Part shown: positions 9,565-49,557 of the stretch, piece after piece
How positions within the stretch are numbered: the stretch's first letter is position 1
Layout of the letters: each line of letters starts with the position of its first letter
NCBI GenBank assembly: GCA_019636755.1
Contig: JAHBWZ010000008.1
Location: forward strand, 103,900 to 167,899
DNA: 64,000 nucleotides
Reading direction: 5' to 3'
DNA from: Phycisphaeraceae bacterium
Lineage (GTDB): Bacteria > Planctomycetota > Phycisphaerae > Phycisphaerales > SM1A02
Made by a program: the position numbers and the translations under genes
The notes under the pieces: model-generated
Seen by the model: only the letters and a program-made list of their open reading frames with translations
Told to the model about the DNA's origin: nothing
The model's database searches: none

Positions 9565-9592
9565 GGCGGAAGACGCCTTCTCGGCGGAGAAG

Positions 9593-9666
9593 CGCACCCG
9601 GAGGGACTCGAACCCCCGACCTTCTGGTTCGAAGCCAGACGCTCTATCCAACTGAGCTACGGGTGC
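9593..9666 (-). tRNA. tRNA-Arg (anticodon UCG)
   Basis: GCACCCGTAGCTCAGTTGGATAGAGCGTCTGGCTTCGAACCAGAAGGTCGGGGGTTCGAGTCCCTCCGGGTGCG folds as a cloverleaf: 7-bp acceptor, anticodon loop CUUCGAA, T-loop TTCGAGT. Confidence 0.9.
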
Positions 9667-9855
9667 AGACGGCGGAGGATATCGCGGGCGCCGCCGCGCT
9701 GGAAGCGCGGGCGGGGTGCCGTCCGGATGCGCGGGTGGTGCAGGCACGCGCGGCGGACGGACGACCCGAGGCCGGACTGCCGATGCACTGGCGGGGCAGA
9801 AAGAGGGGGTCTTCCGGCTTTCGTGCGGGGAGACCGGGCCGTGGACGACGCCGCC

Positions 9856-10260
9856 CATGGGGGGCTGAGGCCCCCCATGCACCCCCCTTGCGCGCAGGCG
9901 GGTGGTGGTGGTCAGCCGGCGCGCGAGTGGAGATGCCTGCGCGCAGAGGGTCCGTGGTCGCGCGCAGGACGTCCGGCGGCGACGGCGCGTGCAGCGCGGC
10001 GCGTCCGTGATCGCCTTGTTGCGAGTCAAGGCGTTCCCCGGATCATCCATCCGCGAGGGGGGTTGCAGGGGGGCGCTTCAGCCCCCCTGCGCATGCGCGT
10101 GCCGAAATCGATGGCGTGCACGGCGCCATGCCCGGGCGCATCGTCCTGATCGATGACTGGTGCTTGATCGCGCGCCCAATGTCTTTCAAGCACCCGGGTG
10201 GACCTCGGGTCTCCCCGGTCACGAGAGTCTCGTCCGGGTGCGCGAGCGCAGGTGGGGCTG
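9856..10260. repeat. Dispersed copy of the composite G7/C7-hairpin repeat element (same family as the 42.3-46.4 kb array)
   Basis: Hairpin A-type CATGGGGGGCTGAGGCCCCCCATG (9856-9879). Core ...GGTGGTCAGCCGGCGCGCGAGTGG... Hairpin B-type GCAGGGGGGCGCTTCAGCCCCCCTGC (10065-10090), preceded by GGATCATCCATCCGCGAGGGGGG. Degenerate continuation to about 10260. Confidence 0.8.
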
Positions 10261-10904
10261 GACATCCGCGATGCCGTCGATCCCGCGCGTCCGGGCGAAG
10301 CCCGACTCCCGGCGCGCGGGCGTGCGTTCACTCCGCCGGTACGCCCTCGCCGCCATCCCCGGCTCCAGGCGATCACGCCATCGGCGTGCTGGGCTGCAGG
10401 CGATACACGCGCGCCCGTCGCCGGCGAAACACGTCGTTCGCAAGGCGGGTCCACCCGCACGAAGGCCGGAAGCCCCAAAAAGGATGACGGGCGGCCGCTC
10501 ACGCGGACGCCCGTCGTTGGATCAGGAAAACGACTCGTCGCCGGGTTCCGTGTCGCCGCGTGTCCGCGTCGTGGACGGTGAGGTCGGGCCCCATCGAGTC
10601 GGCCGTTCCTCCGGATGCAGCCCGAAGGCCGCACGCCATCCGCGGAGCAGGTCTGATGCCGCTCCGCCCGGGTTCCGATGTTCGAAGCGTCTCTCCGTCT
10701 TCTCACAAGCGCCGACGCTTTCTTCCGATGGGCCCATGTCGCCGGGGCGGGGTCGCCGAGGCGGGTGGACCGACCGGTTGCGGTCACGTCGAAGCTCGAC
10801 TCTCTCTCTCTCGGGCTCTCTCGTCTCGATGGGAAGGAGGTTCCCGGGAACCGAAGCCGGTTGCCGGGAAGGCGAACTCTCGGACGTGAGTGTATCGGCC
10901 CTGG

Positions 10905-12215
10905 TCAGGGGCCACAAGCCCCGAGGTGCAATTTCTGCGGCCCCTTCGACATCCCGGTCCCGGCGTGCTGCCCGTCCACCCGGCGGGTGCCCTCGCCCTG
11001 TTCGTGGATGGTCCGGACCCGGATCGTCTCGGGGATCGCGCTCAGCCGGGTTTCGACCACGTCGGCAGGCACCGGATCCACGTCGAGGATGACGTAACTG
11101 ACCTCGGCGTTGCTGCGCAGGTACTCGGCGTTGATGTTGACGCCCAGGTCCGCCATGATCCCGTTGATCCGGCTGAGCACGCCGGGCACGTTCCGGTGGA
11201 AGTGCAGGATCCGCAACTGATCGGCAAGCGGTGAGGGGAGATCCACCTCGGGGACATTGACCGCGGAGGTGGTCGTGCCGGTGCGGACGAACCGGGCGAG
11301 CTTCTCGGAGACCTCGACGGCGATGTTGCGCTGGGCTTCCTCGGTGCTGCCCCCGACGTGCGGCGTCAGGATCACGTTCGGCAGGCCGGCGAGAGGGCAT
11401 GCGAACGGCGCGTCGTTCAGCGCAGGCTCCTCGGGGAAGACATCGGCGGCGATCCCCCCGAGATGCCCGGTCTGCAGCGCGGCCGCGGCCGCGTGGAGAT
11501 CGACGACGCTTCCCCGGGCATTGTTGATGATCATGGCGCCGGGCTTCATCGTCGCGATCTCGGCGGCGCCGATCAGGTTGTGCGTCGCGGGCGTCGCCGG
11601 GACATGCAGCGAGACGCAATCGGCCTCCCGAAGAACATCGCTGAGCGACGATCGCGGCTGCGCATTGCCGAGCGGCAGGCGCTGGACGATGTCGAAGTAC
11701 ACGACGCGCATGCCGAACGCCTCGGCAAGGACCGAGACCTGCGACCCGATGTGGCCGTATCCGATGATGCCGAGCGTGCGCCCGCGCACCTCGTGAGCGC
11801 CGGCGCTGGACTTGTCCCAGCGTCCTCCGTGCATCAGCATGCTCTTGTCGACGAGCCTGCGGTTCAGCGCCACGACCTCCGCGAGCGTGAGTTCGGCGAC
11901 ACTGCGCGTGTTCGAGAACGGGGCGTTGAAGACGGTGACGGCGCGGCGCATCGCGGCGCGCAGATCCACCTGGTTCGTGCCGATGCAGAAGCAGCCGATC
12001 GCCAGCAGATCCGGAAGCCGCTCGATCGTCGCGGCGTCGATCTCGGTCTTGGACCGGATGCCGAGGATCGCGGTCCCCGCCAGTTCGGACGGCGAGGCAC
12101 CCTCGAGAGCGCCGTCCCGCCGCTCGACACGGAGACCGGCCTGGTGGAACGCGGCCTCCGCCGCCGGGTGGATCCGTTCGCAGAGCAGCACCTTCATGTC
12201 CGTGAGAGCCTCCAT
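10905..12215 (-). CDS. serA: D-3-phosphoglycerate dehydrogenase with C-terminal ACT domain
   Basis: 436 aa. NAD-binding GIIGYGHIGSQV. Catalytic-region motifs INNARGSVVD and TPHVGGSTEEAQ. ACT-like tail LRILHFHRNVPGVLSRINGIMADLGVNI. Confidence 0.9.
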   Translation of the reverse strand: MEALTDMKVLLCERIHPAAEAAFHQAGLRVERRDGALEGASPSELAGTAILGIRSKTEIDAATIERLPDLLAIGCFCIGTNQVDLRAAMRRAVTVFNAPFSNTRSVAELTLAEVVALNRRLVDKSMLMHGGRWDKSSAGAHEVRGRTLGIIGYGHIGSQVSVLAEAFGMRVVYFDIVQRLPLGNAQPRSSLSDVLREADCVSLHVPATPATHNLIGAAEIATMKPGAMIINNARGSVVDLHAAAAALQTGHLGGIAADVFPEEPALNDAPFACPLAGLPNVILTPHVGGSTEEAQRNIAVEVSEKLARFVRTGTTTSAVNVPEVDLPSPLADQLRILHFHRNVPGVLSRINGIMADLGVNINAEYLRSNAEVSYVILDVDPVPADVVETRLSAIPETIRVRTIHEQGEGTRRVDGQHAGTGMSKGPQKLHLGACGP

Positions 12216-12248
12216 GGCCGGCGTCCGTCCTGATCGTGCCGCCCCGGC

Positions 12249-13064
12249 TCAGTCACCCACGATCTCCGGCAGGTCGGCGAGACCCTCGGTGAGGTCGCAG
12301 GGGCCCTCCTCCGTGATGAGGACATCCGCCTCGTAGTGGACGCTGAGCGAGCGGTCACCGGTGAATATCGGCCAGCCCCGGGGCTCGGAAAAGGTCTCCG
12401 GTGTCCCCACCGCGATCATCGGCTCCACGGCGAGCAGCATGCCCGGCTTGAAGGTGGTCCAGGCGTCCGGCCACTCGGCCCGGTTGCGCGGGACGACGTT
12501 CGAGATGAACGGACTGTCGTGCAGCGTCCGGCCGTACCCGTGTCCCCCGAGGTTGCGGACGAGGTGGAAGCCGCACTCCGCCTCGGCGTGGGCCTGGACC
12601 GCTCGCGCCCAGTCCACGAGCGGCCGCCCAGGCTGCATCGCGGCGACCCCCCGGCGCAGCGCCTCCCGGCCGCACTGCATCAGCCGCCGCGCGGTCGGAT
12701 CGGCATGGGCGATCGCGTACGTCCAGGCCGCGTCGCCGATCCAGCCGCGGTGCACCACGCCGATGTCCACCGAGAGCAGGTCTCCGGGCTCCAGCGCCTG
12801 CTCGGTCATCGTGTGCGTGCCGTGCACGATGCAGGCGTTCACGGACAGGCAGGAGTGGCTTGGAAAGGGGGGCAGCCCGGAGGCCTGGTAGCGGAGGAAG
12901 GCGGAGCGGGATCCGCGGCTCCGAAGGGCCTCCGCGATGAAGCAGTCGATCGCCGCGAGGGTCAGACCCGGCCGCAGGAAGTCGACCAGGTCCTGGTGGA
13001 TCTCCACCACCTGCCGTGCGGCCAGCCGGGCGCCCTGGGTGTCCGATTCGGTTCTGATGAGCAT
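12249..13064 (-). CDS. map: Type I methionine aminopeptidase
   Basis: SHSCLSVNACIVHGTH, LLSVDIGVVHRGWIGDAAWTY, NLGGHGYGRTLHDSP, LAVEPMI and HYEADVLITEEG are metal-ligand contexts. Start chosen at MLIRTESD (13064). Upstream in-frame ATGs at 13166 and 13361 are possible but give an atypical extension. Confidence 0.85.
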   Translation of the reverse strand: MLIRTESDTQGARLAARQVVEIHQDLVDFLRPGLTLAAIDCFIAEALRSRGSRSAFLRYQASGLPPFPSHSCLSVNACIVHGTHTMTEQALEPGDLLSVDIGVVHRGWIGDAAWTYAIAHADPTARRLMQCGREALRRGVAAMQPGRPLVDWARAVQAHAEAECGFHLVRNLGGHGYGRTLHDSPFISNVVPRNRAEWPDAWTTFKPGMLLAVEPMIAVGTPETFSEPRGWPIFTGDRSLSVHYEADVLITEEGPCDLTEGLADLPEIVGD

Positions 13065-40277: not shown

Positions 40278-42281
40278 GTGCCGGCCCTGTTCGATTCTCT
40301 TTCGATCCTCATCGAGCGCGGCGGGATCATCATGGTCCCGCTGCTCGCGCTGAGCATCGCCGCGCTGGCGATGATCGTCGAGCGGTCGCTCTTCTGGTGG
40401 ATCGCGCACCGGGCGACGGCGGTCCGGCGGGCGGAGCATCTCCTGGAGGCGCTGCGTGTCCGGAACCGGACGCGGGCGCTCGCCCTGACCGAGGGCGACG
40501 AGGGACCGTACGCGGTCGTCGCTCGCCGGCTGGCGGAGCGGGGCGCGGGAGACGCCGTGGCGCTCGCGGCGGTGGATGCGGTCCGACCGCGCATCGAGCG
40601 TTTCATGACCGCCCTCTCCACGACCATCACCGCCGCGCCGCTGCTGGGGATCCTGGGGACCGTCATCGGCATCATCCGTTCGTTCGAACTGCTGGGCGGT
40701 CATACCTCGCTGACCGATCCGCGCGCCGTCGCGGCGGGCATCGCCGAGGCACTGCTCACCACCGCGTTCGGACTCATCATCGCGCTGCTGACGCTCTTCC
40801 CGTACATGCTCTTTCGAGGGCACGTGCAGCGGGCGTTCCTGCGGCTGGAGTCGCTCATCGCCGCGGCGCGGGAGGCGTCGACATCCCCGGGCGAGCCGCC
40901 GGCGGTGGCGGAGCGCGGGCCGGCGGAGCGCACCTCCGGCGCCCTGGCGCCACCCGGCGCTCATGCGGGCCGCGTGCCGGTCGCGGTGCTCGCCATCATC
41001 GCGGGGGCCGTCGCCGCGTCGACCGCGCTGCCAGAGGCACAGGCGTCGGAGCGATCGATCCGGCGCCAGCGCACCGCCGACGGCCTGGTGCTGGAGACGG
41101 CCGTCCGCCGGTTCGTCGACCCGGTGCGCGGCACCGAGGTGCTGCTCGCGGGGGTGACGCATATCGGCGATGCCGCGTACTACGCGGCGCTCGGCGACCT
41201 GCTGGGCACCTGCGACGTCGTCCTGTTCGAACTCGTCCGGCCCGCGGGTGCGGGCGCGGTCGCGGGTGCAACACCGCAGGCGCGACGCGACGCCACGCGC
41301 GCGGCCGCGATGTTCCTTGCGGACGCGATGGCCGTTCTGCCCGCGGCCGTGGCCGATGGAGAGGCACAGGCGACGCCACCGACCTCCGTCGCCGGACTGG
41401 CGGAGCGCCTTCGCGCCACGGACTCGATCCTCGCGAACCTGGTGGCCGCGACGGCGATGGACGCGTGGGGACACCCGTTCACCGTGTCGGCGGACGCGGT
41501 GCGCAGCCTGGGTGCCGACGGCGCCGAGGGAGGCGAGGGCGAGGCGGCGGACATCATCGTGGACGTGCCGCCCGCAACCGGCATGGCCGGGCGCGCAGGC
41601 GGCCTGCAGGCGTCGCTCGCGCAGGCGCTCGGCCTCGCGTTCCAGCTGCACGAGATCGATTACGCCTCTCCGTCGTGGCGCGCCAGCGATCTCACGATCG
41701 ACGACCTGGATGCGCGCCTGCGGGCGCGGGGCGTCCCGATCAGCCTGGGTGGCGGCGGCGCCGACGGTGGTGGCGGTCCCGCGCTCTTCGGCGGCGTCAC
41801 GGAGACGATCGCGCGGCTGATGCTGACCATGATCGAGCGCGGCGATCGCATGTCGGGCGGGACGCTCCGGCGCTCGCTCCGGCTCCTGCTGGTCGAACTG
41901 CTCGGCGATCCGGCGACGCTCGAGGGCGGACTCGCGCAGCTCGGCGAGGATTTCCACGCGATCATCATCGAGGAGCGCAACGAGGTTCCTGTCCGCGACC
42001 TGCAGGCGCTCCTCGCCGGGGACCCGGTGCCCGGCCGCATCGCGCTCGTGTACGGCGCAGGGCATCTCCCCGACCTGGCGGCGCGCCTGGCGGCGCTGGG
42101 CCTGGAAGAAGGCGCGTCCACCTGGCTCTCCGCAATCACCGTGGACCTCGCCGCGGAAGGCGTGCCCGCCGCCGAGCGCCTGAGGCTGCTCCAGGCGGTG
42201 CGCCGCATGCACATGATGATGCGAAGCCAGATGCAGATGCCGGCGCCGGCGCCGGGGCGCCCGGCCTCGCCGCGCGAGTGA
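40278..42281 (+). CDS. Fusion protein: N-terminal MotA/TolQ/ExbB proton-channel domain + extra TM + C-terminal TraB/GumN-like domain
   Basis: 667-aa single ORF (GTG start). ExbB-like aa 1-200 (LSTTITAAPLLGILGTVIGIIRSFE...GIAEALLTTAFGLIIALLTLFPYMLF). Hydrophobic linker VPVAVLAIIAGAVAAS. TraB/GumN-like landmarks: LLAGVTHIGDAAYY...CDVVLFELV, LHEIDYASPSWRASDL, IIEERNEV, ALVYGAGHLPDLAARLAALG. Confidence 0.7.
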   Translation: MPALFDSLSILIERGGIIMVPLLALSIAALAMIVERSLFWWIAHRATAVRRAEHLLEALRVRNRTRALALTEGDEGPYAVVARRLAERGAGDAVALAAVDAVRPRIERFMTALSTTITAAPLLGILGTVIGIIRSFELLGGHTSLTDPRAVAAGIAEALLTTAFGLIIALLTLFPYMLFRGHVQRAFLRLESLIAAAREASTSPGEPPAVAERGPAERTSGALAPPGAHAGRVPVAVLAIIAGAVAASTALPEAQASERSIRRQRTADGLVLETAVRRFVDPVRGTEVLLAGVTHIGDAAYYAALGDLLGTCDVVLFELVRPAGAGAVAGATPQARRDATRAAAMFLADAMAVLPAAVADGEAQATPPTSVAGLAERLRATDSILANLVAATAMDAWGHPFTVSADAVRSLGADGAEGGEGEAADIIVDVPPATGMAGRAGGLQASLAQALGLAFQLHEIDYASPSWRASDLTIDDLDARLRARGVPISLGGGGADGGGGPALFGGVTETIARLMLTMIERGDRMSGGTLRRSLRLLLVELLGDPATLEGGLAQLGEDFHAIIIEERNEVPVRDLQALLAGDPVPGRIALVYGAGHLPDLAARLAALGLEEGASTWLSAITVDLAAEGVPAAERLRLLQAVRRMHMMMRSQMQMPAPAPGRPASPRE

Positions 42282-42299
42282 TCCTGAGATGGGAGGGGG

Positions 42300-43260
42300 A
42301 GGAGTCGGCGCGGCGCGTCCGCGACCGATGCATCGCGCGCCAAGGCGCTTCCGGGATCGTCCATCCGCGAGTGGGGGGTGCAGGGCGGCGCTTCAGCCCC
42401 CCTGCGCATGCGCGTGCGGAAGGCGAGAAGGCGTGCACGGCAGAGTGCCTGAGAGCGTCGTCAGGTTGCTGACTCGTCCATGCGCGCGCGCGCTTGCTCG
42501 CTCGCTCGATGTCTCTTCGGGGACCACGGTTGGCGTCGGGTCTCGATGATCATGTGGCTTTCCGTCCGGGGGGCGCGAGCGCAGGGGGGGCTGAGGCCCC
42601 CCCTGCAACCCCCTTGCGCGCAGGAGGGTTGTGGTGGTCAGCCGGCGCGCGAGTGGTGGTGGCATCGCGCATTGAGTTCAGGGGCGCGCGCCGAGGACCT
42701 CTGGCGCCGATGGCGCGTCCGCGACCGATGTATTGCGTGCAGAAATTCGTTCCCAGGATCATCCATCCGCGAAGTTGCAGGGGGAGCAGCTCAACCCCTG
42801 CGCACTTTACGTCACGGAGAAGACGATGAAATTGCCTGGCAGGTGCCTGAGAGCGTCGTCAAGTTCCTGACTCGTCCATGCGCGCGCGCGCCTGCTCGCT
42901 CGCTCGATGTCTCTTCGGGGACCACGGTTGGCGTCGGGTCTCGATGATCATGTGGCTTTCCGTCCAGGGGGCGCGGCAGAATGGGCTACCACAGCTACTA
43001 TGAAGGTGGCGGTGGTCAGCCGGCGCGCGAGTGGTGGTGCCTTCGCGCATGGAGTCCAGCGCCGGGCGCTGAGGACGTCTGGCGGCGCGGCGCGTCCGTG
43101 ATCGATGCATTGCGCGAGAAGGCGCTTCCGGGATCATCCATCCGCGAGGGGTTGCGGGAATTCAGCCCCTGCGCTCACTGCGTGGAAGCGATAATGCAGC
43201 CGGTCACCTGGGAAGCGTCGTCAAGTTCCTGACTCGTCCATGCGCGCGCGCACGCTCGCT
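42300..43260. repeat. Tandem array (left part) of about 0.4-kb composite repeat units carrying inverted G7/C7 hairpin modules
   Basis: Unit starts near 42309, 42711 and 43089 (GGCGCGTCCG(C/T)GA(C/T)CGATG...). Hairpins at about 42379-42405, 42581-42606 and 42777-42801. Conserved cores GACTCGTCCATGCGCGCGCG...CTCGATGTCTCTTCGGGGACCACGGTTGGCGTCGGGTCTCGATGATCATGTGGCTTTCC. No credible ORF. Confidence 0.85.
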
Positions 43261-43338
43261 GTAAGCGTTCGACGAACGACGCCTTGGCGCCGTCTCGCGG
43301 CACATGCGACGATCGGAGGCCTCGAAAGGAGGCTGGCG

Positions 43339-43700
43339 ATGGCGGAGCAGCCCAGGGACGGTGGGCGGAGGCGGAACACGGAGATCGAGCGGGCGTGGCG
43401 TGAGCGCATCGCGGGGTGGGAAGCCAGCGGGCTGAGCGCGGGCGTACTGCGGCGAGCACGGTCTGAAGGCGGCTCGTTCTGCGTATGGCGGCGGGAGCTC
43501 GATCGGCGCGCGACGGCAGGCGGCGCGGCCGGCGCGGCAGGGCCGAGCCGGCAGCAGCGCCGGACACAGCCGCGGTTCGTCGCCACTCAGGTCCGCGAGC
43601 GGACGCCAGGCGCCCGATCGAGATCGTGCTGCCGGGCGGCGCGGTCGTTCGTGTGAACGGTCACGCCGATCAGGCGACCATCGCGGGCGTGCTCCACTTG
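43339..43700 (+). pseudogene. tnpA: IS66 tnpA (orf1) remnant
   Basis: AAGGAGG RBS then ATG. MAEQPRDGGRRRNTEIERAWRERIAGWEASGLSA... The motifs continue in other frames (YCGEHGLKAA / SFCVWRREL, then PIEIVLPGGAVVRVNGHADQATIAGVLHL), implying indels. Confidence 0.6.
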
Positions 43701-43739
43701 CGCTTGCACGCGAGCGCGGGCATTGCTGGGTCTCCGCCC

Positions 43740-44070
43740 TCGACGGATCCTGCTGTGCGCAGGTCACCGACATGCAGCGCGGCTTCAGCGGCACGGCGGG
43801 ATGACGCGCGATATTGCTTCTGGATGATCCGCTCTCGGGTCACCTCTTCGTGTTCCGCAACCGGCGCGGCGATCGGATGAAAGATCCTGTGCTGGGGGAT
43901 CGCGACGGCTGTAGCTTCTGAGCACAAAGCATCAGGAAAGACATTCCCGTTCCCCGCGCGCGCCACGGCTCGGCGTCGGTCGGGTGGATCGCGCGACGCT
44001 GACGCTGATCATCGGGGCATCGACGTGCGCGATGCGCGCCCGGCAGCGGCTATCGGCGATCGGCGCTGGC
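43740..44070 (+). pseudogene. tnpB: IS66 tnpB (orf2) remnant
   Basis: Fragments RILLCAQVTDMQRGFSG and DPLSGHLFVFRNRRGDRMKILCW match the conserved IS66 Orf2 pattern, but frame changes and stops interrupt them. Confidence 0.55.
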
Positions 44071-44119
44071 GCCGCAGCATCATGCTGCGATAAGCTCGCA
44101 TGTTCGTAACGGTATCACT

Positions 44120-45800
44120 AGTGTGATCATCCTTGCACATCGCAGCAGGGACGCGACTGTGCCGACGACCTTGACCACGACCACGACCGACCACGACGAC
44201 CAGGGCGGTGCGGAACGGTCTCGTCGGGGCACCGCCGAGCCCGTCAGGCGTGGGGTCCACCGGTATCGAGGATCACCGGCGAGCGTCGGATCATCAACAG
44301 ATGATCCACCTGCTCGGGTCGATGAACAGACGGCCGCGTCGAACGCGAAGCTCCGAGCAGCTCGCGTACATGCTGCGGCGCTTACCGGGGACGCCAGTCA
44401 GAAGATGGACGCGGCGCTCCTGCTCTTTGCCAGAATTGCTCAGCGAAGCCGTGGCCGGGCGACCGACGCCGATCGCGCACTCCGAGCCCGCGGAAGAGCA
44501 GACGCAGTCAGAAAAGCCGCGCGGACGAAGCCTTCGGGGCGGCGGAAGATCGGCCCACCTGCGTGTCATCCATGAGCACAGGCTCGGCTCCGTCGATGCT
44601 CCCAATGCGTGCTGCGGTGAAGAACGCGTCGTGATCAGTGCGGGACGAGTGGCAGTATGAGCTCGTGCCGGCGAAGCTGGTCGTGACCCGGCACGTGACG
44701 GTTCACCTACGCGTGCCGCTCGTGCGGGGCGAGGTCGAGATTTCAACGCGAAGCCCGGCAGCCCGATCTGAAGTGCCTCGCGGGACCGGGCCTCGGCCCA
44801 CACGTGATCGTGAACAAGTTCGACGATCATCTGCGATGCTCACCGCCGAGGAGAGATCTTCAGACGGAACATCGACATCAGCCGCTCACGATGTGCGGGT
44901 GGTTGATGGGATGCGTGGCGGCAGCGGAACCAGTGTACAAGCTGATGCACAGCCGGATCTGCGATCAGGTGGTCCAGACGGACGGCTCGACGCTTCCGAT
45001 GATGGAGCCGGGGCGCGGATCGACGCAGGCGTCGGGATTCTGGGTATACCGTGAGGGCGATCTGCGCCGTACGTGGCGTACGACTTCACGGGACAGGACC
45101 GCGGCAGGCCGCAACAGCGCAGCTGAAGGGGTTCAGCGGGACACTCCAGGGCGGATGCATCGTCGATCTACGACGACATCTTCTTCGACGAGAAGAGGTT
45201 CGGCGCGCGTCGTCGAGGCAGGATGCTGTGACGCATCTGCGGCGGTGCTTCGAGAAGTCGAAGCTGGAGCATCCTGCCCGGGCAATCACGGCGATAAGAG
45301 GTGGATCAGGAAGCTGTACGCCATCGAGGACGAGCCCGAAGCGGATGTCAAGCAACGACGGCGCCCGCCTTCGACGGCGCGAATCGCGAGCGGTGCTGGA
45401 CGGCTTCTACGCGGCTGGACACGATCGAGCCGGGTGCAGCGCGCGAAGGCTCCAGCTCGGCAGGGCGATCACGCCGATGCGGCGGCACCGGAGGCCCTGA
45501 GCCGATACGCGAGCAGCGGTCGTCTCGCGATCGACAACAACGCGTCGAACGCGGCGTCAAGCCGATGGTGATCGGCCGGAAGAACTACCTGTTCGCGGGC
45601 AACCCGGATGGCGGCCGCGCGCGACGCGACGCTGGCGCACGATGGTCGAGTCGGCGAAGGCGTGCAGGATCGAGAACCCGGCGATCTGGCTGGCGGACGT
45701 CTGGCTCGCGTGAACGACACGCCCGAGCACGAGCGCGCCGATCTCCTGCCCGACCGGTGGAAGCTGCTCAACGGGAACGCGGCCGTCCGCCAGATCGCCG
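44120..45800 (+). pseudogene. tnpC: IS66 transposase tnpC remnant
   Basis: Scattered across frames: Zn-finger-like CCGEERVV...YELVPAKLVVTRHV, HVIVNKFDDH, VQTDGSTLPMMEPGRGSTQASGFWVY, LAIDNNASN, VIGRKNYLFAGNPDGG, LLPDRWKLL. Multiple frameshifts and stops. Confidence 0.7.
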
Positions 45801-45924
45801 CCGCCGCCGCCCGCCGCCGCGCGTTCGCCGTCACGCGGCCCCGCTGAATCTCAGCCCGATCCTCGGCCAGCCGGCCATGCGCCGGCGCAGAGCACTGCGG
45901 GGACGTCGTTCGTCGAGCGCTTAC

Positions 45925-46440
45925 CGCTCGCTCGCTCGCTCGATGTCTCTTCGGGGACCACGGTTGGCGTCGGGTCTCGATGATCATGTGGCTTTCCCTC
46001 CGGGGGGCGCGAGCGCAGGGGGGGCTGAGGCCCCCCCTGCAACCCCCTTGCGCGCATGAAGGTGGCGGTGGTCAGCCGGCGCGCGAGTGGTGGTGGCATC
46101 GCGCATTGAGTTCAGGGGCGCGCGCCGAGGACCTCTGGCGCCGATGGCGCGTCCGCGACCGATGTATTGCGTGCGAAGTCGTTCCCGGGATCATCCATCC
46201 GCGAGGGGGGTTGCAGGGGGGCGCTTCAGCCCCCCTGCGCGTGCGCGTCCAGAAGGCGATGGCATGCCCCGCAGTGCCTGCGCGCAGGCGGTCGCGCCGA
46301 GGAAGTCGGCCTCGGGACGCGTCTCTGACATGGACGGCACGTCGATGAACGGCCGAGCGCGCGCCAACGCGTGTCCGGGATCGTCCATTCGCCGGGGGGG
46401 GTGCAGGGGGGCGACGCAGCCCCCCTGCGCTCGCGTGCGC
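45925..46440. repeat. Tandem array (right part) of the composite repeat units, resuming exactly where the IS66 element interrupted unit 3
   Basis: CGCTCGCTCGCTCGCTCGATGTCTCTTCGGGGACCACGG... continues unit 3. Hairpins at 46015-46040 (A-type), 46213-46238 and 46403-46428 (B-type). Unit 4 starts near 46143. Confidence 0.85.
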
Positions 46441-46638
46441 TGTTCCAGGAGTCCTGAAGGCGCTGTCCGGATGCCTGGTACGCGGCCCATCCGGTCGCAG
46501 GGGCTCGCCCCCCGGCGGATTCTGTGCACGAATCCACTGAATTCCTGTCCGGGTTCCGCCGCCGCCGTCGGCCCTGGTCCCGGTCGACCGGTCCTGCGCA
46601 GGCCGGGCGCCCCCGGCCCTGACCAGGAGTGATCGCAC

Positions 46639-49557
46639 ATGCTCGCCCGGCTCGTTCTTCTCGTGGTGCTCTCGGTCGTGATCCCGCGGACCGTGGCGGC
46701 CGGCCCGCCCGGCCCCGGTGCATTCACGTTCCAGGGCCAGCTCCGTCAGGACGGGGCGCCCGTCACCGGGCCGGTGGACCTGCGGTTCCTCCTGTACGAC
46801 GCGCTCGTCGACGGCGACCAGGTCGGGGAGACGCTGGTCGCCCCGGCATTCGGCGACTTCGACGACGAGGGGCGGTTCACGGTCGACCTCGACTTCGGTC
46901 CGGACGCCTTTCCCGGTGGTCCGCGCTGGCTGGAGATCCAGGTCGGCGACACGGTGCTTTCGCCCCGGCAGCCCATCATGCCCGCGCCCTACGCGATGCG
47001 CGCCCTCGCCGTCACCGCCGTGGCGGACGGTGCCCTCTCCGGCATGTACTCGAATCCGATCGCGCTCAGCAACCCGGCGAATGCGTTCTCCGGGTCAGGT
47101 GCGGGCCTGACGGACCTGAGCGCCGCCGCGATCACCACCGGCATCCTCGGCGGCGCGCATCTGGCCGGTGCGTATCACCAGGCACTCTCACTGACGAACG
47201 TGAACAACGTCTTCGCGGGCGACGGTTTCGCGCTGACCGGCCTGAACGCCGCGGCGCTGACCGGCGTCCTGCCGGACGGCGCGCTGGCGGGCGCCTACAG
47301 CGGCGCGGTGTCCTTCACCAACCCGGCGAACAGCTTTGCCGGCAGCGGCGCGGGACTCACCGCGCTCGACGCCGGGCACATCACGACGGGCGTGCTGACG
47401 GAGGCACGCCTGCCCGCGACCCTGGTGGATCGGCTTCCCACGGTCATCCCCGGAGACGCGGTTGCCCTGGCCAGTATCGGGCCGGGCGGCAACCACGTCG
47501 GCGCCATGGCGATCGCGGGGCCGTACGCGGCGATCTCGCGCGACGGTCCCGCCCCGGGCGATCCCAGGTTCGTCGTCTATGACATGACCGACCCCTCGTC
47601 GCCCGTTCAACTGGGATCCATCGCGTCCGCCATGCACGCCCGCGCCGCCGCGGCGCTCACGGAGTCGCTCATCGCGGTGCTGCATGCAGGCAACGTGGTC
47701 CGCCTGTTCGACATCGCGAATCCCGCGGCTCCCGCCCTTGTCGCCACGCAGACGCTCGGCGCCAGCCCCATGATGATGCTGCGGACGTGCATGGCCGCGG
47801 ACGGCGTCCTGTACGTGCTGGACGACTCTGCCGGAACCGTCGTGTCCTTCGCGCTCACGGCGCAGCCCGAGCCGCTCCAGCTCATCAACTGGGCCCAGAC
47901 GACGTCGGGGCCCAGGGCCCTGGCGTGGACCGGGACCGACTGCTGCGTCGTCACGGCGGCGGGCCGGCTCGAGGTCTACCGAACGCAGGACCTGACGCCG
48001 ATGTCGGTCACGCAGATCGTCGGATCGCCGGTCGCGATCGCCGCCCGGGGCGGATACGTCTTCGTCCTCAGCGAGAACCCGGACGTGCTGCTGACCTTCA
48101 AGATCGCCGTCGACGGCGTGCCCATCTCCATCGGACAGGTGCCGGTCGAGCCCGGGTCCCAGCACATCGCGGTCGGGGGGAACATCGCGGCGGTGGTCTC
48201 CGCCGATGCGCTGCGACTGCAGGTCTTCGAGGTGTCCGTCGCCAGCCTGGCCGCACCGGTCCTGCTGGACAGCGTGCCGGTCAGCGCGTCTCCGCGCACC
48301 CTGGCGATGGATGCAGACACGATCTACCTGGCCGGCGGGCCCGCCAGCTTCCTCCGGACGTTCGGCCTCGATCCGGTGCTCCGGTTCACGGCGCCGGTCC
48401 TGGCGTCCGCGGGCCTGTCCGGTAGCGGCACCGCCCTGACCGGACTGAACGCGTCGAGCCTGGCCAGCGGCACGGTCGGCGGAGGACGCCTCTCCGGCAC
48501 CTACGGCAACGCGCTCTCATTCACGAATGCCGGCAACACCTTCGCCGGCGACGGCGGCGGACTCACGGGGCTCGATGCATCCGGCGTGAGCGCCGGCACG
48601 CTCAGCGATGCGCGCCTGTCCGCCAACGTCGCGCTGCTCTCCGGCGCGCAGACCTTCAGCGGCGCCAAGACGTTCTCGAACGCGGGCAACGTCTTCACGG
48701 GCAGCGGCGCCGGGCTGACCTCGCTCAACGCCGCGAGTGTCAGCAGCGGGACGCTCAACGCCGCGCGGCTGCCCGCCTCGGGCAACTGGCAGCCGTCGTC
48801 GACGGTCTCCATCGCCGGAAGCGCCTTCGCGGTCAGCCCGTCGAGCGGCGGCCGGGTCGGCGTGGGCACCACGTCGCCGCTGCTTCCGATGGATGTCCAT
48901 GCATTCGGGAACCACGTGGCCCGGCTGCTCAGTCCGTCGACGATCGGCACGTGGCTCAGCCTGGCCAATACCTCCACCGGCGGCAATCACTGGCGGATCA
49001 TCTCGTCGGGACAGGCCAACGGCGAAGGAAGCGGTCACCTGCTCTTCGCGCACTCCCCGGACCTCAACGACGGCGTGGCCACCCGCGTCGTCATGCGGAG
49101 CGACGGTACCGTCGGGATCGCCACGGCCGAGCCGTTGTTCACGCTGCACGTCAATGGCAGTGCCGGAAAGCCGGGCGGAGGATCGTGGTCAACGGCGTCC
49201 GACGCCCGGCTCAAGCACCGGGTCGAGCCGCTCCGCGGCATGCTCGATCGGCTGCTCCGGCTCCAGGGCGTGTCGTTCGAGTACATCGATCCCGACGCCG
49301 TGAGCGAACTGCATGGCACGCGGACCGGGCTGCTCGCGCAGGACGTGGCGCAGGTCTTCCCGGACTGGGTGGAGAAGGGCGCGGACGGCTACCTCCGACT
49401 GACGATCCGCGGCTTCGAGGCGATCATGGTGGAGGCCACGCGCGAGCTCCGCGCGGAGAAGGACGCGGAGATCTCCGCGCTGCACGAGCGGATCGATCGG
49501 CTGGAGGCGCTGGTACACCGGCTGGCCGGCGCCGCGGGAACTGGAGGTGCGCGATGA
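46639..49557 (+). CDS. Secreted tail-fibre-like protein: fibre-repeat regions flanking a beta-propeller (LVIVD-like) insert, with C-terminal endosialidase-chaperone (peptidase S74-like) domain
   Basis: AGGAG RBS. Signal MLARLVLLVVLSVVIPRTVAAG. Repeats ...FTN(P/A)(A/G)N.FAG.G.GLT.L.A... on both sides of aa ~270-560. C-terminus SDARLKHRVEPLRGMLDRLLRLQGVSFEY...GLLAQDVAQVFPDWV...IRGFEAIMVEATRELRAE. Confidence 0.8.
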   Translation: MLARLVLLVVLSVVIPRTVAAGPPGPGAFTFQGQLRQDGAPVTGPVDLRFLLYDALVDGDQVGETLVAPAFGDFDDEGRFTVDLDFGPDAFPGGPRWLEIQVGDTVLSPRQPIMPAPYAMRALAVTAVADGALSGMYSNPIALSNPANAFSGSGAGLTDLSAAAITTGILGGAHLAGAYHQALSLTNVNNVFAGDGFALTGLNAAALTGVLPDGALAGAYSGAVSFTNPANSFAGSGAGLTALDAGHITTGVLTEARLPATLVDRLPTVIPGDAVALASIGPGGNHVGAMAIAGPYAAISRDGPAPGDPRFVVYDMTDPSSPVQLGSIASAMHARAAAALTESLIAVLHAGNVVRLFDIANPAAPALVATQTLGASPMMMLRTCMAADGVLYVLDDSAGTVVSFALTAQPEPLQLINWAQTTSGPRALAWTGTDCCVVTAAGRLEVYRTQDLTPMSVTQIVGSPVAIAARGGYVFVLSENPDVLLTFKIAVDGVPISIGQVPVEPGSQHIAVGGNIAAVVSADALRLQVFEVSVASLAAPVLLDSVPVSASPRTLAMDADTIYLAGGPASFLRTFGLDPVLRFTAPVLASAGLSGSGTALTGLNASSLASGTVGGGRLSGTYGNALSFTNAGNTFAGDGGGLTGLDASGVSAGTLSDARLSANVALLSGAQTFSGAKTFSNAGNVFTGSGAGLTSLNAASVSSGTLNAARLPASGNWQPSSTVSIAGSAFAVSPSSGGRVGVGTTSPLLPMDVHAFGNHVARLLSPSTIGTWLSLANTSTGGNHWRIISSGQANGEGSGHLLFAHSPDLNDGVATRVVMRSDGTVGIATAEPLFTLHVNGSAGKPGGGSWSTASDARLKHRVEPLRGMLDRLLRLQGVSFEYIDPDAVSELHGTRTGLLAQDVAQVFPDWVEKGADGYLRLTIRGFEAIMVEATRELRAEKDAEISALHERIDRLEALVHRLAGAAGTGGAR

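Follow-up and report, generated by a model that had tools for sequence, protein, structure and literature searches.

The gap between two neighbouring genes of a Phycisphaeraceae bacterium, analysed here within a 64-kb stretch of its genome (the window; features lie on the plus strand unless the minus strand is named), is occupied for most of its length by a tandem array of composite units of about 0.4 kb (42296-46450, including an IS66 insertion), each built from short GC-rich hairpin modules in opposite orientations. The array is real and lies far beyond chance expectation: its core motifs occur three to four times in the window compared with no occurrence in 100 shuffles, and the G-run/C-run hairpin pattern occurs five to six times against an expectation of 0.00-0.02. 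The repeat is also a dispersed family, which we found in the window array, at a second locus in the window (X, 9842-10262) and in another genome, on the metagenome contig L133. Based on these results and those described below, we consider it probable that the array is a lineage-restricted, non-coding mosaic repeat of the repetitive extragenic palindrome (REP)/bacterial interspersed mosaic element (BIME) type, founded on a module of about 45-50 nt and amplified locally by recombination.

Repeat finding together with nhmmer recovered three full head-to-tail units (402, 375 and 385 bp) and two short-form units (190 and about 120 bp), a unit number that rests on this one assembly; the 0.4-kb period was not reported by Tandem Repeats Finder. 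A full unit consists, in order, of the 3′ half of the linker core2, module B, the linker core1, module A and the 5′ half of core2, with the two linkers, of about 150-160 nt each, alternating with the modules. Unit U1 (42306-42707, 402 bp) has this complete arrangement, with module B at 42366-42413 (hairpin 42380-42405, one mismatch in the stem) and module A at 42573-42620 (hairpin 42581-42606, with a 10-bp G/C stem). In U2 (42708-43082, 375 bp) module B is shortened symmetrically to a 7-bp stem (42777-42801), and 23 unrelated bases (42977-42999) stand at the position of module A. The 385 bp of U3 are cut in two by the IS66 element, leaving a left part of 178 bp (43083-43260), in which module B has decayed at 43154-43172 and lost its 5′ arm, and a right part of 207 bp (45933-46139) with an intact module A (46007-46054, hairpin 46015-46040). 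Finally, U4 (46140-46329, 190 bp) and the partial U5 (46330-46450, about 120 bp), which forms the terminus of the array, keep module B (46200-46246 with its hairpin at 46213-46238 in U4; hairpin 46403-46428 in U5) and have no module A. In these short forms the core2 3′ half and module B are followed by about 40 nt and then, across a GTGCCTG/(A)TGCCTG microhomology, by sequence from mid-core2, a structure consistent with deletion between the two microhomologous sites. A preliminary description of the region had proposed four composite units, each carrying both modules, that filled the whole gap. The head-to-tail units of about 0.4 kb are real and U1 does carry both modules; the fourth unit, however, is the 190-bp short form and is followed by a partial fifth, the other units have a replaced, shortened, decayed or missing module as listed above, and the array stops about 190 nt upstream of the next start codon at 46639.

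The modules are the best-conserved part of the repeat. As had been proposed, A and B are inverted copies of each other: they are mutual reverse complements over 41-53 nt, with 79-88% identity, and the inverted homology stops there. Within each conserved module of 41-53 nt lies a hairpin core of 24-26 nt, in which a G/C stem of 9-10 bp closes a loop of 6-8 nt, and the predicted folding of these G-run/C-run hairpins was likewise confirmed (-12 to -22 kcal/mol as DNA). The conserved module flanks read GGGGG-TT-GCAGGGG and CCCCTGC-GC. When the copies were compared segment by segment, module B was 92-98% identical among U1, U4, X and L133 (that of U4 being 98% identical to the copy at 10052-10098 and 94% identical to the L133 copy) and module A was 96-98% identical among U1, U3 and L133, whereas the linkers were 55-77% identical between loci and genomes. 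A change that preserves the stem is found at X, where the hairpin at 9856-9879 has gone from GCAGGGG../..CCCCTGC to CATGGGG../..CCCCATG; its stem is CATGGGGGG/CCCCCCATG in place of the GCAGGGGGGG/CCCCCCCTGC seen elsewhere, a G-C to T-A replacement that involves both arms. The same CATG stem variant is present in a decayed module A′ on L133, and the sharing of this variant points to module subfamilies (GCAG-type and CATG-type) in which pairing has been retained. The double change at 9856-9879 is better evidence for the preservation of structure over sequence than the hairpin at 42777-42801 on which the preliminary description had based this claim; the latter hairpin exists and is a weak example, being a symmetric shortening of the same stem.

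The array has been amplified locally by recombination. Its unit-to-unit junctions are homologous, with no target duplications between units, which indicates growth by unit duplication and not by repeated insertion. A 250-nt block that spans the U3/U4 junction (45925-46174) is 98% identical to the block that spans the U1/U2 junction (42491-42740), and core1 is 94-99% identical among U1-U3, against 34-73% for neighbouring segments in these units; such a mosaic of identities is a hallmark of unequal crossing-over or gene conversion. One segment of U4 (46278-46325) matches L133 at 12216-12262. The shuffled blocks of 94-99% identity, the apparently deletion-derived short form and the inserted IS agree with the earlier characterization of the element as recombinogenic.

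The insertion sequence (IS) within U3, already recognized as IS66 in the preliminary description, is 2664 bp long (43261-45924), has terminal inverted repeats that start with GTAAGCG and is bordered by an 8-bp target duplication, CGCTCGCT (43253-43260 and 45925-45932). Matches to the Pfam family DDE_Tnp_IS66 fall on frameshifted open reading frames (ORFs), and the transposase region is spread over at least five frames in ORFs of 138-255 aa. Since nearby chromosomal genes keep long intact ORFs, these frameshifts represent decay and not sequencing error, and this IS66 copy reads as a decayed pseudogene. The insertion point is a (GCTC)n microsatellite of the linker core1.

The repeat had been described from the gap, to which, as the two additional loci show, it is not confined. 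X, which was first flagged by core and hairpin motifs and was found with nhmmer and blastn, amounts to about 1.2 diverged units placed between tRNA-Arg(TCG) (9592-9666, minus strand) and serA; it consists of A′ (the CATG-type hairpin at 9856-9879), core2, B (hairpin 10065-10090), a diverged core1 and a truncated A. It is contained in a 600-bp segment (9714-10313), starting 47 nt upstream of the 5′ end of the tRNA gene, that is missing from other strains of the species: in four short-read assemblies, each from its own run, a contig extends from serA to a molybdopterin-oxidoreductase gene without 9714-10313, with flanks that are 98.5-100% identical to the window. A 9-bp direct repeat, GCGCGGGCG, is present at 9705-9713 and 10305-10313 and occurs as a single copy in the empty site (L139 11891-11899). 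The two ends of the segment share just weak, gapped similarity with each other, and family homology is absent from 9714-9841 and 10261-10313, together 181 of the 600 bases, which means that the boundaries of the indel differ from those of the repeat. Microhomologies of 9 bp are, by our estimate, frequent by chance in DNA of 71% GC. The polymorphism would stem either from an insertion that duplicated a 9-bp target or from a deletion between microhomologies; because of the 181 non-homologous bases and the commonness of 9-bp chance matches, a deletion is at least as likely.

The copy in another genome was reached with a protein query made by translating the unit in six frames, the sole search to find such a copy. 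The query matched two over-called ORFs, P0001 from a European Nucleotide Archive (ENA) assembly (833 aa, L133 10001-12522) and P0002, a 751-aa NCBI protein from a metagenome-assembled genome (MAG) labelled Phycisphaeraceae bacterium, both of which read through the repeat in the wrong frame. On L133, the 22.5-kb locus around P0001, the copy lies at 11729-12265 (nhmmer E 1e-54) and has the same order as X: decayed A′, core2, B, core1, A and part of core2. The host gene encodes an FG-GAP/VWA protein; its true frame continues to about 11700 (...DVIFVLDESASV...) and resumes at about 12270 in another frame (...GLVEYGADVEEL...DCNGNGIPD...), with a stop at 12522. The copy stands in place of about 155 codons (about 465 bp) of a VWA domain that is intact in the homologue P0082, and the repeat can therefore occur in coding DNA, as a replacement and not as a clean insertion. 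When P0001 and P0002 were compared by eye in a BLASTP alignment, identity was about 60% over the N-terminal 420 or so residues and about 99-100% over the C-terminal 370 or so, the repeat copy included, for 72% overall; this pattern suggests that the segment with the repeat was recently recombined or transferred, or that gene conversion has homogenised two paralogues. About 100 nt past the stop codon of the FG-GAP/VWA gene, at L133 12617-12650, lies a separate GC-rich hairpin, CCCCGGGGCC...GCCCCGGGG, which may be a terminator without a U-tail, of a type that would suit this GC-rich lineage.

Other searches returned no further members of the family. The 21-mer GGTCAGCCGGCGCGCGAGTGG gave six single chance matches in contigs of GTDB-representative genomes, all of them from Actinomycetota, and nhmmer detected no family homology in any locus recovered by a loose-pattern metagenome scan. 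There was no match among the plasmids, phages and viral contigs that were searched. A search of representative proteins, in which the FG-GAP columns were kept, returned FG-GAP proteins, among them P0082, and the relatives L137 and L138, whose serA is 66-68% identical, have no copy within ±10 kb of that gene. With Rfam, two tRNAs alone reached the gathering score in the whole window, and nothing was found at E≤1 in 42200-46700. The preliminary description could place the element in no known repeat class, and the negative results with Rfam, plasmids, phages and viral contigs are in line with this. A literature search found no report of palindromic intergenic repeats in Phycisphaerae, and we know of no study of repeat elements in this group.

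The closest parallel to the array is provided by REP sequences and their clusters in Enterobacteria and Pseudomonas. REPs are imperfect palindromes of 20-40 nt with a GTAG or CGTC tetranucleotide at one end; they number tens to thousands per genome, spread over its extragenic space, and go with a cognate REP-associated tyrosine transposase (RAYT), a Y1/HUH enzyme whose gene REPs usually flank. In described REP families the stems are 5-13 bp and the loops 2-20 nt, and the palindromes form head-head and tail-tail dimers; in clusters the dimers are tandemly reiterated with flanking DNA, and intragenic copies and IS insertion have also been described (PMC3733652). The array similarly consists of short, GC-rich, imperfect palindromes, whose stem of 9-10 bp and loop of 6-8 nt are within the published ranges and which alternate in orientation (B-core1-A-core2-B...) with conserved linker motifs between them. 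Its dimers are likewise tandemly reiterated together with flanking DNA, its copies are mainly extragenic and occasionally intragenic, it is prone to IS insertion, and its palindromes are better conserved than its linkers. In contrast to REP/BIME elements, the modules have no GTAG or CGTC tag, the linkers are about 150-160 nt long as opposed to mostly 1-100 nt, the period is about 0.4 kb as opposed to about 0.1 kb, and no RAYT was identified for the family among the window genes. The modules were also never seen alone, and their copy number is probably low, whereas classical REPs are often solitary. The array family falls outside the REP superfamilies described so far: the GTAG/CGTC tag is missing, its linkers and period are longer by several fold, and a RAYT is not known for it. 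A likeness to REPINs, in which REPs occur as doublets, is seen in the two inverted palindromic modules that flank a spacer, in the GCAG-type and CATG-type sequence subfamilies and in the ability of the whole unit, as predicted, to form one long hairpin in single-stranded DNA, the minimum-free-energy fold pairing B with A. The differences are a spacer of about 160 nt, compared with about 70 nt in the REPINs of Pseudomonas, a doublet that can be read either as B-core1-A or as A-core2-B with no locus that holds a discrete, self-ended doublet, and the lack of a cognate RAYT in the window. Of the MITE-like and BIME-like affinities that had been suggested, it is the likeness to BIMEs that holds best, because conservation of the modules far exceeds that of the linkers and one stem has stayed paired through a compensatory change.

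The array grew by head-to-tail duplication of the composite of about 0.4 kb and was later rearranged through unequal crossing-over or gene conversion, deletion at microhomologies in the short-form units, the loss or replacement of modules and the insertion of IS66. From the conservation of the hairpin we infer that something acting on its structure keeps it. A candidate is a trans-acting protein that recognises or mobilises the hairpin, as RAYT transposases do for REPs; alternatively, the hairpin might benefit the host, for instance through transcription termination or protection of the 3′ end of the upstream mRNA. New loci would be seeded by a transposition-like or recombination event.

Several observations weigh against the assignment to the REP/BIME type. 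Pfam scans of the window revealed no RAYT/IS200-like genes and no transposases besides the IS66 remnant. Solitary modules are absent from the 64-kb window and from about 100 kb of related contigs, and neither a GTAG/CTAC nor a CGTC/GACG tag is conserved at either end of the aligned modules. The spacing of about 160 nt between modules and the 0.4-kb period exceed those of any described BIME or REPIN. The high identity of the modules could reflect recent spread or gene conversion and not selection, and the weight of the cross-genome identities would depend on the phylogenetic distance between the hosts of the window and of L133. The recovered loci number three, in two lineages (two in the window, and L133), and the SPAdes contig behind L133 was assembled through its copy, which argues against many near-identical copies in that genome.

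Alternative explanations account for parts of these data. If the element were one of the miniature transposable elements with inverted repeats (MITEs), that is, a non-autonomous DDE transposon mobilised in trans, with A and B as its terminal inverted repeats and the array as a secondary duplication, one would have a ready explanation for a core of about 160 nt flanked by inverted modules of about 45 nt, for the perfect 9-bp direct repeat, of target-duplication size, around the 600-bp segment next to tRNA-Arg, and for the one copy within a gene, on L133. Bacterial MITEs (Correia/NEMIS, ERIC, RUP and others) and the Rickettsia palindromic elements are similarly small, non-coding and dispersed, have inverted repeats, can insert into genes and vary between strains in their presence or absence. 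Nevertheless, we regard this explanation as unlikely. Clean termini are found in no copy, the start and stop points within the unit differ among the three loci, and the family differs from these elements in its lack of defined ends or a demonstrated target duplication and in its tandem arrangement with homologous unit junctions. The polymorphism at X, with its 181 bases that have no family homology, is explained equally well by microhomology deletion, and the L133 copy replaces about 465 bp of coding sequence and so is no simple interruption. No parent IS is known and none with matching ends was found in the window, where the ends of IS66, the sole IS, are unrelated to the modules. Taken strictly, the MITE affinity suggested in the preliminary description is thus left without termini, a proven target duplication or a matching IS. 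An assembly artefact, whereby the array or its unit number would result from collapse, expansion or a chimera at a GC hairpin that is hard to sequence, is very improbable, even though the array is not crossed from end to end by any independent assembly. About ten sequencing runs yielded Logan short-read contigs here, and every one of these ends at a G-run hairpin module (the ends of L134, L135 and L136 and the starts of L001-L006), the left-edge contigs breaking off where B has its first G-run, 91 nt past the stop codon, and the right-edge contigs beginning inside B of U4 or U5. Against an artefact, both edges of the array are exactly reproduced in many runs, the units differ among themselves in specific ways, an IS66 element with a proper 8-bp target duplication sits inside one of them, and independent copies exist at X and in a SPAdes contig of another genome.

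Two further alternatives would assign a product or a cis-acting function to each unit, and here the coding and folding properties of the repeat are informative. As the preliminary description had stated, the gap contains no credible ORF: between 42281 and 46633, outside the IS, none has the signature of this genome's genes in G+C content at third and second codon positions (GC3/GC2). Indels of 1-2 nt between units shift the reading frames, and no frame is conserved between copies. ORFs of 155 and 90 aa in the unit, and a minus-strand ORF ('MDDPG...HHHSRAG'), were examined as genes and fail on frame shifts or second-position changes. The layout of tandem intergenic units with an isolated extra copy elsewhere recalls the 0.3-0.5-kb units of the E. 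coli long direct repeats (LDR) and Sib/Ibs loci, in which each repeat encodes a toxic or regulatory peptide and an antisense RNA; two ORFs could be brought forward for such a system, namely a 30-codon minus-strand ORF in core1 (42461-42553, MIIETRRQPW...) with an upstream GGAAAG and a plus-strand ORF of 17-35 codons that begins directly after module A. The former is unrecognisable in X and L133, where just 'RAS' is common, and the latter has no conserved stop, most of its differences between the window and L133 copies falling on second codon positions. With frames shifted between units, no small ORF conserved in the family and predicted peptides that are basic and hydrophilic, unlike typical type I toxins, there is very little to recommend this explanation.

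It is also unlikely that the units have been selected for the host as a tandem family of small RNA genes, each with a terminator hairpin of its own, or as a stack of terminators or insulators between the two flanking genes. In favour of such a role, the hairpins are very stable and are kept by compensatory change, module and core2 sequences are conserved between genomes, and a strain with a 93%-identical flanking protein retains the array start at an unchanged position. The whole unit, moreover, folds better than shuffles (z -3.5 for the plus and -3.1 for the minus strand); this score, however, arises because module B pairs with module A, and the covariation terms of RNAalifold are unfavourable (+9.7 and +1.25, with 4-5 sequences). 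A repeated structured RNA, which had also been suggested, therefore has no support past the local hairpins, and a long-range RNA structure was rejected on the same grounds. No Rfam family was matched even at E≤1, and the units contain neither a sigma-70-like promoter nor a U-tailed terminator. Copies occur in unrelated contexts, one of them within a gene that is disrupted, four strains do without one of the copies, and some units have lost modules. Promoter motifs of the sigma-54, sigma-70 and extracytoplasmic function (ECF) types are not conserved across copies, and the sequence does not fit integron attC sites, CRISPR repeats or G-quadruplexes. Somewhat apart from these alternatives stands the idea that the module of about 45 nt, with its G7/C7 hairpin, is the recognition site of a new trans-acting Phycisphaerae system and the composite a giant hairpin-doublet element or a structured RNA unit. 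We hold this to be improbable; candidates for such a system could be a structure-specific mobilising enzyme outside the GTAG/RAYT rule or a nucleic-acid-binding regulator, either of which would maintain the 92-98% identity of the module between loci and genomes amid the drift of its surroundings.

If the array is a mosaic repeat of the REP/BIME type, it would extend this design to a little-studied Phycisphaerae host and to a larger scale, with 0.4-kb units, 160-nt linkers and no GTAG/CGTC tag. The near-invariant modules amid drifting linkers would mark the hairpin as a target for a binding or mobilising protein. The repeat also has practical consequences. Its hairpins break every short-read assembly at the array locus and so fragment MAGs of this group, and gene callers read through it to produce false, over-long proteins such as P0001 and P0002. 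In addition, the repeat marks sites of strain-level structural change, as seen in the 600-bp indel, the IS insertion and the disrupted gene.

The array is flanked upstream by a gene (40278-42281) with a MotA/ExbB domain and a C-terminal half related to TraB/GumN-type proteins. Pfam finds MotA_ExbB alone, in the N-terminal third, and the TraB label derives from P0005, a homologue of 37% identity with the domain PF01963 (TraB/GumN family). Since dxs and ispA adjoin it, the gene lies in a core neighbourhood, not in the accessory one that had been assumed for the flanking genes. The downstream gene (46639-49557) encodes a protein of 972 aa with a Peptidase_S74 chaperone domain. The flanking genes have homologues solely on Logan short-read contigs from this or a close species, whose flanking proteins are 99% and 93% identical, and the best named relatives of serA are from Phycisphaerales/Phycisphaerae MAGs (59-68% identity). 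The remaining genes of the window include ABC transporters, an outer-membrane efflux protein, serA, an M24 peptidase, polymerase X and pheA as well as dxs, ispA, iscS/nifU, cheX and fapA, and the window is ordinary chromosome.

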